64,000 nucleotides of DNA, taken from sequence record PV691511.1. One strand, written 5' to 3'. Made by a program: the position numbers and the translations under genes. The notes below the pieces were generated by a model. The model made no database searches, was not told where the DNA came from, and worked only from the letters and a program-made list of their open reading frames with translations. Source of the DNA: Escherichia phage WPEC2. This document shows, piece by piece, positions 50,510-60,622 of this stretch (the first letter of the stretch is position 1; each line of letters begins with the position of its first letter).

Positions 50510-51121
50510 TTATTTAATCTGTTTAAAAATTTCGTTTGGAACGGTACCGTTTAAAATACCTTCTACGATCTCTTGTGCAGACGTGTAAGAGAGTCCAAAA
50601 GAAGCTACGCCTAAAATTGCCTCCTTCAAAGGATCTGGCAGGGGTTCAAAATTACCTGCAACAAAGCCACCTGCACAAGCAGCGCCTTCATCATCCCAGA
50701 AAACAACTGCTACATCGTTACCATGCGAAGTTGTGCGATGTGCAATAACTTCAACTTCGGTGCCTTCTTTAGGAACAGAATAAGAACTGTCCCAAGAATA
50801 TCTTTCCAAATCAGGAACAAAGATAACCTTTTCACCTACTGGCGGCAGTTCACAACGATAATACCAAGAATTTTTTTCGTTCATTGTTTTATTTTCCTCC
50901 ACGTCTTCAAAAGTAACGATCCAATCGTAGCCGTAAGAAAACGGATATTTTAGATCTAAAGAATAAGTTTGACCTAGATCGTCCTCAACAAGAACCATCC
51001 TGTCAAAGTTTGCGATGTTAGGATTATGTTTAATGATAGGGTATGTTTCCCCTACAGTAAATTGTCCCAAATGGTAAAGTTCATCTCTCCAAGTAATTTG
51101 GATATGAGTGCATTGAATCAT
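50510..51121 (-). CDS. hypothetical protein with C-terminal SFGL...QEI motif
   Basis: 203 aa; C-terminus ...VASFGLSYTSAQEIVEGI shares motif with 53771-54325 and 60323-60622 products. Confidence 0.6.
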   Translation of the reverse strand: MIQCTHIQITWRDELYHLGQFTVGETYPIIKHNPNIANFDRMVLVEDDLGQTYSLDLKYPFSYGYDWIVTFEDVEENKTMNEKNSWYYRCELPPVGEKVIFVPDLERYSWDSSYSVPKEGTEVEVIAHRTTSHGNDVAVVFWDDEGAACAGGFVAGNFEPLPDPLKEAILGVASFGLSYTSAQEIVEGILNGTVPNEIFKQIK

Positions 51122-51125
51122 AAAA

Positions 51126-51398
51126 TCACCCCCAAGAAATATTTATATATCTTACAATGTTTGCACTGTCTAAAGCCATGTTTGCACCACACCCACGCTC
51201 GCGCCAGTAACTAACAATACCTTCGCAGATACTTTCTTGTATCTTCTTATCACTTGGCATTTCTAGTATAAGACTTGGGTTGTGGATGTTTATGTTATAA
51301 TATCCTTCCTCTGCGGCTTGAGCTACCAATTTACTTACTTTTTCAAAGTACGGGGAATTAGTGGCATCTGCCATTGTTTTTAAGGTTTGTCTATCCAT
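51126..51398 (-). CDS. hypothetical protein
   Basis: 90-aa ORF. Confidence 0.5.
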   Translation of the reverse strand: MDRQTLKTMADATNSPYFEKVSKLVAQAAEEGYYNINIHNPSLILEMPSDKKIQESICEGIVSYWRERGCGANMALDSANIVRYINISWG

Positions 51399-51796
51399 TA
51401 TTCTGCCTCATCATAGAAGAAATCCAACTCTTGTTCCAGTTGTTTAACTCGATCCTTAACCCACTGTACACGTTTTTCATTAAACATGCAACGTTTTTCC
51501 TTACACTCTTGCTCAAAAGATTTTGCTGTGTTAAATGGGAAAGTTGTATCTAAGCCAGCGTTTTCAAAACTGGCTAATTGCATACCATAAACAGAATATG
51601 CTAGAGAATGCTCTGCCCGAAATTCATCACTTATATACATACGCAGACCTCGGCATAAGCCAACATCAGCGTAACCACTTTCTCTTGGAAAGAGACGGAG
51701 GTGTTCTAACCAATTATTATAGAAATCTAAAAGAATCCTCTTACACTTCAAATCGATTGTCATAAAAAGTTTCTCCTTCATCAAACAAGTTGGCAA
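51398..51796 (-). CDS. member of six-gene paralogous family
   Basis: ...LLDFYNNWLEHL...GLCRGL...TFPFN...RVQWVKDRV. Confidence 0.6.
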   Translation of the reverse strand: MPTCLMKEKLFMTIDLKCKRILLDFYNNWLEHLRLFPRESGYADVGLCRGLRMYISDEFRAEHSLAYSVYGMQLASFENAGLDTTFPFNTAKSFEQECKEKRCMFNEKRVQWVKDRVKQLEQELDFFYDEAE

Positions 51797-52163
51797 GATT
51801 GTTCACGGCAATCTGGGTGGAAAGAAGACAACTGTTTGCAGACACATAAGCACGAGCTATTTTGTAAACATAAACTTTCGTATTACAATTGTCTAGGATC
51901 GGAAGACTTTCGTCGATAGCATCTATAACACTAAACATCACATCTAAAACTTTAATGGTGAGTGTTGTATTTGTATCTTCGTAACCTTTTTCAATCAGAC
52001 CTGAATAGAAGGTATAGTCCTCAACAGTTCGTCGTTTAAATTGGCGCATAAAATCGGAACCATCTGTAGCAGAATTGAACAAATTTTCAAAAAATACGTC
52101 CCATCCGGCAAAAAGGGCTGACAGCATGATTAAGTGATCTACAGATTCATTTTCTTGTTTCAT
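51741..52163 (-). CDS. hypothetical protein
   Basis: 140-aa ORF; extent of 5' overlap uncertain. Confidence 0.5.
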   Translation of the reverse strand: MKQENESVDHLIMLSALFAGWDVFFENLFNSATDGSDFMRQFKRRTVEDYTFYSGLIEKGYEDTNTTLTIKVLDVMFSVIDAIDESLPILDNCNTKVYVYKIARAYVSANSCLLSTQIAVNNLANLFDEGETFYDNRFEV

Positions 52164-52171
52164 ATCCTCTC

Positions 52172-52843
52172 CTATTTAATGTTAAGTCTGGCACACAAAC
52201 GAGAAACAGTTTTAGCATCCCATTTACCACCACGTGCTGTTGCTATTTTCTTACTATTGAATTTTTCAGCAATAGTTTTGTAAGGTGTATTTAAATCTCT
52301 AAGGATCTCCAAACGTTCACGAAATGTCTCTGCAAAAGCGTCGGCTTTAACAGAGTTGTATTCCATTTTTCCTTTTCTACGTGCAGCGGCAGTTTTAGGA
52401 TTAGCACTGCCTAATAAAACACCTTTGCTTTTTGCTACAGCAAGACCCTTTTTAATACGATCAGCAATACCTCTAACTTCTTGTTCAGCCAGAACAGATA
52501 GAAGCTGTATAACCATTTTATCTGCGTCTGGCATGATGGCTATCTTAACATCGATCATCTCCAGAAGAGTTGCTACAGAGGCGTTGTTACGACCCAAGCG
52601 GTCAACTTTAGCTACCAATAAAGTTGCTCCGGTAGCTTTACACATTTCAACCGCTTTGACCAGTTCCTTACGTTGCTTCCAATCGCCCTTACCCGAATAG
52701 TATTCAGAAAATTGACCAATAACTTCAGCATCAGGCACAGAGTCTAAGAAGTAACGGATATCGTTCTCTTGGCTCTCCATACCATATTGTGCCTCACCTT
52801 TTTTCTGTTTAGAAAGACGACTGTAAACAACAAACTTTTTCAT
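52172..52843 (-). CDS. small serine recombinase (resolvase/invertase family)
   Basis: ATG at 52843 after AGGAG SD (track start is GTG at 52849); catalytic motifs VVYSRLSKQ, LLVAKVDRLGRN, MVIQLLSVLAEQEVRGIADRIKKGLAVAKSKG align with gamma-delta resolvase; C-terminal HTH-like tail. Confidence 0.8.
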   Translation of the reverse strand: MKKFVVYSRLSKQKKGEAQYGMESQENDIRYFLDSVPDAEVIGQFSEYYSGKGDWKQRKELVKAVEMCKATGATLLVAKVDRLGRNNASVATLLEMIDVKIAIMPDADKMVIQLLSVLAEQEVRGIADRIKKGLAVAKSKGVLLGSANPKTAAARRKGKMEYNSVKADAFAETFRERLEILRDLNTPYKTIAEKFNSKKIATARGGKWDAKTVSRLCARLNIK

Positions 52844-59163: not shown

Positions 59164-59633
59164 GTTTTGTTCTCCTCTTTAATTGCAATACGGAGCTTAT
59201 TAGCTTCTCTCACCTGGGACATGAAGTCTTTCTTCTTCATAATGCCAATAGACATTTCATCCAGTTCTTCTGGGTGAATCTGAAGATTACGGCGATCAGA
59301 CAGGAACCAAGTTTTCTCCCACCAGAAGCGTTGATCCTCCTCTTCGTGATATTTATATGTCTCTTTTTCTTCTTCTGTGAGAAGTTTGAATCGGTTTTTC
59401 GCTTCGTACCTCATTGGGGTATGAAAAGGAATGCCATTATCACCATTATACACCGCAGACATAGAAAGGCAATAGCCAGTTTCTGCGTCGATCATCTGGT
59501 AGTGAAATTCACATTCCAGTTCAACGTATTCTAAATCCCCATAAAAATCACTGATCAAGAAAGCAATGTAAGTTTCACCATGTTCGGGAACAAATTCTTG
59601 CTTTGTCAACATTTCCAGTTTCAAACCTGCCAT
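59160..59633 (-). CDS. hypothetical protein
   Basis: 157-aa ORF; start-stop overlap. Confidence 0.55.
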   Translation of the reverse strand: MAGLKLEMLTKQEFVPEHGETYIAFLISDFYGDLEYVELECEFHYQMIDAETGYCLSMSAVYNGDNGIPFHTPMRYEAKNRFKLLTEEEKETYKYHEEEDQRFWWEKTWFLSDRRNLQIHPEELDEMSIGIMKKKDFMSQVREANKLRIAIKEENKT

Positions 59634-59645
59634 TGCTTTCTCCTT

Positions 59646-59945
59646 TTAGTCGAACCAGTTATATTCGGAAGGGTAACGCGCATAGTTTGGCTTATACCCC
59701 AGCCTTTTCATCTTAACAGACATACGAGTGAAGCCAAAGGTTGTTTTGCCCTTAGACATAAACTTCTTCCCGCTCTTCATTGGCTTCTTAGGGTTTTTGA
59801 TCGTCTGGTGTAACGCTCGCGCAAGCCACAAAGTGTATGCGCTCGGCACTTGATTAACTTTCATCTTGTTACCTTTCATCGAAACCTCCTCAGTGAACTT
59901 CGTGCCAAGTGCCAAACTCTTCTGCTGATACTTTAGGAACGGCAT
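59646..59945 (-). CDS. hypothetical basic protein
   Basis: Lys/Arg-rich; true start probably internal. Confidence 0.45.
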   Translation of the reverse strand: MPFLKYQQKSLALGTKFTEEVSMKGNKMKVNQVPSAYTLWLARALHQTIKNPKKPMKSGKKFMSKGKTTFGFTRMSVKMKRLGYKPNYARYPSEYNWFD

Positions 59946-60099
59946 GAGTTTCTCGGTATTTGTTTAAAGCTTTCTCAACGGCTGTAGCAAAAACTTCTTG
60001 AGATTTGTGAGGCATATAATAAGCGCGTCCCATATATGCCAGTGCATCACGTAATTCTTCTGCTTGCTCTTGTGTAACTGTCAACGTGATAGTAACCAT
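59890..60099 (-). CDS. hypothetical protein
   Basis: 69-aa ORF. Confidence 0.45.
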   Translation of the reverse strand: MVTITLTVTQEQAEELRDALAYMGRAYYMPHKSQEVFATAVEKALNKYRETHAVPKVSAEEFGTWHEVH

Positions 60100-60341
60100 T
60101 ATTCAATTGCCTCCAATATAAAGTAAGTAATAAGAATCACAACCCAAGAACACGCTAAAGTTAAAAACATATTGATCCAATGTCTTTGCCTTTCTTTTGC
60201 TGTGCGTCTTCGGTAGCCTACAAGTCTATCGTATACATAAGGTCCATCTTCCAAAGAGAAAAGCAAAACAATAACAGGAGTAACGAAAAAGACTGCTATA
60301 AACAAAACAATCTCTGCAAGCATTATTTCACCTCGGACCAA
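60099..60341 (-). CDS. small membrane protein
   Basis: Two hydrophobic stretches (IVLFIAVFFVTPVIVLLF; FLTLACSWVVILITYFIL). Confidence 0.45.
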   Translation of the reverse strand: MVRGEIMLAEIVLFIAVFFVTPVIVLLFSLEDGPYVYDRLVGYRRRTAKERQRHWINMFLTLACSWVVILITYFILEAIE

Positions 60342-60622
60342 TCAATAGTGATCCACTCGTATGCCCCGTTCAGATCCATTTCTTTATAAACAACAAGCCC
60401 ACGCTCACGAAGAATTGCTACTGCTTCATCCATCCACTTCACCTGATTGTAGATCTGCTCTGGGTGGGTGGGAGAATTATTCAGACCAAAATCAGATGGC
60501 GTGAAATTTCTTGAAGAGTTTCCCGCTCGTGCTTCAGCAAAGCATGTCTCGATCACTTCTTCAACAGGGAAGTTGAAGGAAGCTTCTTTTGCAATACGGC
60601 GTAACTGTTCAGTCAGATTCAT
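60323..60622 (-). CDS. hypothetical protein with FGLNNSP...EQI motif
   Basis: 99 aa; shares FGL.NSP...EQI with 53771-54325 product. Confidence 0.5.
   Translation of the reverse strand: MNLTEQLRRIAKEASFNFPVEEVIETCFAEARAGNSSRNFTPSDFGLNNSPTHPEQIYNQVKWMDEAVAILRERGLVVYKEMDLNGAYEWITIDWSEVK

Follow-up and report, generated by a model that had tools for sequence, protein, structure and literature searches.

An FGL-type motif in three small Phapecoctavirus proteins: a domain common to two of them and a resemblance in the third

From ~46 kb to the end of a 64,000-nucleotide stretch of Escherichia phage WPEC2 (sequence record PV691511.1; this whole stretch is hereafter called the window), every plausible gene is small and lies on the minus strand. 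Inside this single block of same-strand genes are three, here named A (50510-51121, 203 residues), B (53771-54325, 184 residues), and C (60323-60622, 99 residues), whose products carry an FGL string followed by an EQI-like string: SFGLSYTSAQEI in A (residues 174-185, positions 50567-50602), SFGLCNSPSSYEQI in B (residues 129-142, positions 53900-53941), and DFGLNNSPTHPEQI in C (residues 44-57, positions 60452-60493). A preliminary description of this DNA took the string for a small mobile domain or interaction peptide shuffled among three otherwise different early proteins. A fourth gene, D (51126-51398, 90 residues), lies immediately upstream of A and turns out to bear on the question; all four are on the minus strand.

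The window comes from a Phapecoctavirus-type E. coli phage. Over positions 50000-61000 it matches Escherichia phages WPEC1, WPEC4, and WPEC6 at 100% identity and ~60 other Phapecoctavirus (phAPEC8-like) genomes at 95-99%, and nearly every gene of this region is labeled "hypothetical protein" in the matching records.

Genes B and C share a whole domain

The similarity between B and C reaches far beyond the motif. Residues 85-183 of B align with residues 2-95 of C at 34% identity (BLASTP expect value, E, 4e-12), and a phmmer search within the window recovers the same pair at 1e-8. The PHROG families of the two proteins cross-match as well: residues 86-183 of B match the C family, phrog_15686, at 1.3e-9, and C matches the B family, phrog_37387, at 9.1e-6, next to the matches of each protein with its own family (E 6e-51 for C; E 1.9e-131 over the full length for B). 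The end-to-end match to the family profile is significant for both. B and C are thus homologous over an entire domain of ~95 residues, here called X, which stands alone in C, a homolog of Phi92_gp005, and makes up the C-terminal part of B, behind an N-terminal module (residues 1-70) and an acidic linker. Residues 1-66 of B match two further families, phrog_24403 and phrog_18786. The proteins had been called otherwise different, which does not hold for this pair, as the entire C-terminal half of B is homologous to all of C.

When B and C are aligned together with the distant proteins P0022 and P0023 and a Justusliebigvirus protein, each ~39% identical to C, 13 columns are invariant (in the numbering of C: E22, A31, G34, F40, P42, G46, P51, Q60, L71, R72, G75, L76, and W95). 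These positions cluster in the motif stretch, which is therefore the densest conserved run of the domain. A narrower alignment of B and C homologs has 21 invariant columns; the phenylalanine of FGL (F45) is among them in this narrower set only, being leucine in P0022. The EQI part of the motif varies within both families, reading GAI, ESI, or DGV in homologs of C and EEM in homologs of B, and close homologs of B have EEMD where B has EQIS. Residues 47-59 of C are the most variable part of the protein among its close homologs (8 of 13 columns, against 23 of 86 elsewhere; Fisher p = 0.02). The X domains are acidic, with isoelectric points of 4.7-5.9 and net charges of -2 to -10.

An AlphaFold2 model of C, made from a 12-sequence alignment, has a mean predicted local distance difference test score (pLDDT) of 81 and a predicted template modeling score of 0.69. 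It contains helices at residues 3-15 and 20-32, a strand at 37-40, a helical turn at 42-45, a loop at 46-53, a long third helix at 54-73, and a hairpin of strands 77-82 and 88-94. The motif region is among the modeled parts with high scores (block means of 89 for residues 41-50 and 92 for residues 51-60); in the model, the motif of C runs from the end of strand 1 through a turn and a loop to the first turn of helix 3, and it is predicted to be ordered and not a flexible peptide. The F-x-P-x-x-F-G-L-x-(N/D)-x-P...Q stretch would close strand 1, form a tight turn, and lead into helix 3. The model and the invariant residues together suggest that the F-x-P-x-x-F-G turn and P51 are conserved because they shape the connection between strand 1 and helix 3, and that the residues after FGL, including EQI, lie in an exposed loop and helix start where they would be free to vary.

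Foldseek comparison of the C model with the PDB gave nothing below E 0.18. In a viral structure library it matched only uncharacterized proteins of ~80-290 residues (best E 2e-4, TM score 0.69), many of them from large phages, including T4-like ones.

Cassette replacement and natural deletions

Shigella phage SF1-1 carries the same region with the X part of B exchanged. In a blastn comparison the flanks are 97.1% and 98.7% identical, and window positions 53773-54107 (335 bp, minus strand), which hold the X part of B from linker to stop codon, are replaced by an unrelated 235 bp. The switch to unrelated sequence is sharp and falls exactly at the linker and at the stop codon. Two further proteins, P0018 and P0019, join the N-terminal module of B, at 87-89% identity, to an unrelated tail of 60 residues. 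X has thus been replaced in B in the manner of a cassette.

C has been lost in part by natural deletions between short stretches of homology. In P0007, residues 1-76 of C run in-frame, through a common ERE, into the tail of the 58687-58863 product, with a loss of ~1.6 kb (L005 4001-4300 and L006; window ~58760-60400, minus strand). In P0024, residues 1-31 of C run in-frame, through a common FAEA, into the tail of the 55766-55966 product, with a loss of ~4.7 kb and some 20 genes (L007 and L008 4001-4132; window ~55800-60530, minus strand). The losses are confirmed on contigs from several samples, up to 137 kb long. Genomes with P0024 also carry the X-less form of B, and from this together with the two deletions we infer that the FGL-type copies of X are dispensable.

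X thus moves by replacement of the whole DNA cassette at the domain boundaries, as shown for B, and the region also loses DNA by short-homology deletion, as shown for C. The idea of an element shuffled between genes is thereby borne out in part, for a domain of ~95 residues, though not for a peptide and not for A.

The string in gene A and a probable third copy in gene D

The letters of the motif are present in all three products, so that the observation is confirmed in part, but they are homologous in B and C only. Rendered as the regular expression FGL[SCN]..[ST].{2,4}EQ.?I, the pattern as first written matched none of A, B, and C. A looser form, FGL.{4,8}(EQ|QE)I, picks out these three and no others from 102 likely proteins (~20,650 residues) and occurs at 0.0055 per proteome when residues are shuffled. 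It was fitted post hoc to admit A, by loosening both spacing and order (QE against EQ), and the figure of 0.0055 therefore overstates its significance. FGL and the Q/E-I string are spaced by seven residues in B and C and by five in A. The short hydrophobic segment said to follow the motif does so immediately in A, but in B and C only 8-10 residues later.

Rarity in shuffled proteomes speaks against chance occurrence of the looser pattern, but motif-profile and alignment tests fail for A. With BLASTP, A and C gave no match, and A and B could be brought together at the motif only by opening a gap of 14 residues (11.5 bits, E = 10 in a single comparison). With hhalign, the X profile found nothing at the motif of A, only a trivial 9-column match at its N-terminus, and hmmsearch with the X profile did not list A even at E <= 20. 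A hidden Markov model (HMM) of the motif alone (residues 37-68 of C) gave A -4.6 bits and rank 43 of 100 window proteins; in 100 of 100 shuffled proteomes the top match scored better than A. Local alignment and profile comparison therefore returned a full-domain match for B and C and a result no better than chance for A.

The relatives of A lie elsewhere. Its sole strong PHROG match is phrog_7798 (5.5e-59), followed by phrog_23690 at E 0.019, with no cross-match to the X families in that search. The C-terminal 120 residues of A are 65% identical to P0021, a protein with a different N-terminal half that reads SYGLSYQSAKEI at the position of the motif, with F replaced by Y and Q by K. Residues 114-175 of A align with the N-terminal half of the 46681-47289 product (minus strand; BLASTP E 8e-4), which is thus a paralog of the C-terminal half of A; AFQKATGLTLDAKDVQKAFDII of this product stands opposite the motif in a MAFFT alignment. 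Of the invariant residues of X, A has only the G-L dipeptide in a comparable context. In a low-confidence model of A (pLDDT 53 overall, ~66-71 at the motif), the motif falls in a loop with one short C-terminal helix on each side of it, after a beta-rich region, so that the question of a common structural element finds different settings in the two models, the motif of C being predicted at a strand end, a turn, and the start of helix 3. A does not belong to the X family, and its string is a chance resemblance in a different structural setting.

D is probably a third copy of X. A broadened X HMM placed it third-best among 1019 six-frame open reading frames (E 0.0044, profile positions 5-95), and two hhalign comparisons with X, both end to end, gave E 2.8e-4 and 2.1e-4. 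Eight of the 13 invariant positions are kept (the counterparts of A31, G34, P42, P51, Q60, R72, G75, and W95), also in the divergent D homologs of phages PsgM04F and phiWec188. FGL itself is degenerate, being LIL in D and LGL in its relatives; the motif reads SLILEMPSDKKIQ in D and KALGLPQGKELQ in the relatives. D belongs to phrog_24570.

The final strand of X (..WITIDWSE) has a likeness both in the C-terminus of D (..RYINISWG, 51126-51150) and in the N-terminus of A (MIQCTHIQITWRD, 51095-51121). The possibility that the N-terminus of A (THIQITWRD) is a remnant of that strand, left by duplication next to D, was considered and set aside, the hhalign match covering nine columns at a non-significant E of 0.22; the likeness could nonetheless be a duplication scar.

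The gene directly upstream of D, and likewise that of B, belongs to another family, here called W, which has six paralogs of ~105-130 residues on the minus strand (50120-50506, 51398-51796, 54380-54706, 55139-55465, 58372-58686, and 62992-63360). Its signature is FY..YL.WL..GAP...PF....GLC..L ... CHLN..R..WV., and its members are recovered by jackhmmer at E 1e-34 to 1e-54 with no Pfam match. Going by this gene order, a W-family gene and an X gene might once have been duplicated together as a unit, an arrangement into which C does not fit.

Interpretation, context, and relatives of domain X

The explanation that we favor, with a probability of roughly 0.78 for the whole of it, is that X is a paralogous acidic alpha/beta domain of ~95 residues common to B and C, that it moves as a cassette, and that the string in A is coincidental. 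Several points weigh against this explanation. The looser pattern is rare in shuffled proteomes, and reading A as chance requires that a pattern fitted post hoc be discounted. For the structural role of the motif, the sole source is one AlphaFold model based on 12 sequences. D is no more than suggestive as a third copy, with hhalign probabilities of 41-46%, and no annotated homolog of X backs any function.

The string could instead be a short portable peptide, a linear interaction motif copied into three unrelated proteins, and the fact that the looser pattern picks out A, B, and C alone, all within one block of small same-strand genes, would agree with this. The similarity of B and C, however, spans the whole domain, with flanks that are homologous over ~95 residues; the motif lies in an ordered part of the predicted fold with high pLDDT and not in a disordered region; EQI is not conserved within either family; and A fails each alignment-based test and differs in spacing, all of which makes a copied peptide highly improbable. 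A could also have arrived at the string by convergence on a local structure, a hydrophobic-Gly-Leu turn followed by Ser/Thr and an acidic helix start, which is a frequent way for a helix to begin, with no common ancestry or function. Both models show the string as a loop followed by a first helix turn, and the residues conserved family-wide that A and X have in common are just G and L, as convergence would have it. The A model is of low confidence, however, and what precedes the string is a helix in A but a strand in C, and we regard convergence as unlikely; with so few constrained residues common to both, it looks the same as plain coincidence.

As to what X does, one reading places it among the small domains that bind nucleic acids, as one of the R3H, Smr, or Alba/IF3-C-like type, or makes it a transcription factor, as the records of BASEL phages name it. 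That annotation comes without evidence, the R-x-x-x-H motif is absent, there is no Pfam or NCBIfam match, and nucleic-acid binding is made less likely by the net charge of -2 to -10; we regard this reading as unlikely. R3H itself was rejected as a candidate, neither its signature nor a Pfam R3H match having been found. Turning back to the favored explanation of a cassette-borne paralogous domain, the context suggests that X proteins would most likely bind a host protein. A fuller proposal is put forward tentatively and judged improbable: X would be a modular host-targeting domain (e.g., in anti-defense or host takeover), with the variable loop after the F-G turn as its recognition surface, exchanged as a cassette and kept in the diverged copies B, C, and D to track variable host targets. 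Should X turn out to act on a host factor, the natural variants with and without it would provide ready-made genetic controls.

Early expression of these genes is plausible. The best-scoring sigma-70-like site in an 18-kb scan (54355-54383, minus strand) lies ~30 nucleotides upstream of B and consists of TTGACA, a 17-nucleotide spacer, TG, and CATAAT, a consensus match at 11 of 12 positions plus the extended -10 TG. Such sites are not enriched overall (54 found against 49.7 expected in shuffled sequence). The X proteins would be accessory and dispensable, expressed early from promoters of the host type.

X is restricted to the Stephanstirmvirinae (Phapecoctavirus and Justusliebigvirus). When 1.84 billion cluster representatives were searched exhaustively with HMMER, only eight clusters came back, two of them from outside this group: P0026, rejected as a false positive, being a Mos1 helix-turn-helix repeat protein, and P0025, a partial match described below. 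By tblastn, X occurs in 124 phage records, each from a phage of Phapecoctavirus or Justusliebigvirus type. One of the tblastn searches gave 29 more matching places than records, so that up to ~29 of the ~67 Phapecoctavirus-type records appear to hold a second copy, presumably the B form. The phi92 homolog, gp005, is ~40% identical to C and lies ~2 kb into the deposited record.

No meaningful match came from Pfam, NCBIfam, or PDB sequence searches with the four proteins A to D or with the family profile, and no functional work was found in the literature on early genes of Phapecoctavirus/Stephanstirmvirinae or on DUF5659. Names have nevertheless been given to X homologs: the SF1-1 protein is called "putative ankyrin repeat protein RF_0381" and those of the BASEL phages "putative transcription factor". 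Ankyrin repeats are helix-turn-helix units of 33 residues; a Pfam scan of X at E <= 1 gave no Ank family, and the model is mixed alpha/beta. The name "transcription factor" is likewise without Pfam or NCBIfam support.

A serine recombinase (52172-52849, minus strand; Pfam Resolvase 5.4e-18), called "DNA invertase" in the records, lies in mid-block of this lytic phage, and adjoining it is a DUF7202 protein (52914-53126, minus strand), named "ABC transporter ATP-binding protein" in several GenBank records, apparently an annotation error that has spread from record to record. The 132-residue product of 57052-57450 (minus strand) has a signal-peptide-like N-terminus, MKKIIVGLLLLIASLGTANA, and is named "RNA ligase" in SF1-1; Pfam gives that name no support, the sole hit being a sub-threshold Peptidase_C78 match (E 0.005). 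Upstream of C, 61100-61555 and 61561-62016 (minus strand) encode a tandem pair of paralogous 151-residue proteins (jackhmmer E 2e-68), and 60650-61087 (minus strand), just upstream of C, has an MFK..Y.F start like theirs and is a possible relative that jackhmmer did not recover. Over the whole window the sign of the GC skew switches at ~22 kb, ~38 kb, and ~46 kb, and the negative block from ~46 kb on coincides with the minus-strand genes.

The gain is mainly a clarified annotation, with no bearing on a long-standing open question. Two PHROG families of "unknown function", and probably a third, are now linked as one domain family with a defined boundary, the GenBank names of its members (ankyrin repeat protein, transcription factor) are shown to be unsupported, and, for the accessory region of a phage group used in therapy, a clean natural example of domain-cassette replacement and of deletions at short homologies is documented.

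Compared with known domains, X differs from the R3H, Smr, and Alba types in having two extra N-terminal helices, in its acidity, and in the absence of the R-x-x-x-H signature, and its matches to them stay below significance. There is also a partial likeness to P0025, a 261-residue protein from outside the window that is actinobacterial-looking, membrane-anchored, and built of three repeats (..P.(S/T)PEEV....E.DALAAFL.ERGI.H.R.TD..G...V.WD), and that scores above the Pfam cut-off for DUF5659 (29.5 against 23.6 bits). Helix 3 and the hairpin of X (..LRERG(L/I)...D..G...V.W.) align to each repeat (E 2.1e-5 over the whole library; hhalign E 5.6e-5); the match covers the C-terminal half of X only and leaves out the FGL motif, and B, C, and D themselves have no match to DUF5659 in a Pfam scan at E <= 1. 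P0025 may, on this alignment, be a distant cellular relative of half of X.

The history of X is a case of ordinary modular evolution of small accessory phage genes. As in the mosaic evolution known for such genes, both modules of B also occur separately in other proteins, and nothing in the exchange is unusual, with no homing endonuclease or repeat flanking the cassette in the sequence examined. PHROGs keep the C type (phrog_15686, 99 residues) and the B type (phrog_37387, 184 residues) as unlinked families, both of "unknown function"; what is worked out here beyond that classification is where the domain begins and ends, how B is built as a fusion, the replacement of the cassette, and the place of D (phrog_24570) as a probable third copy.

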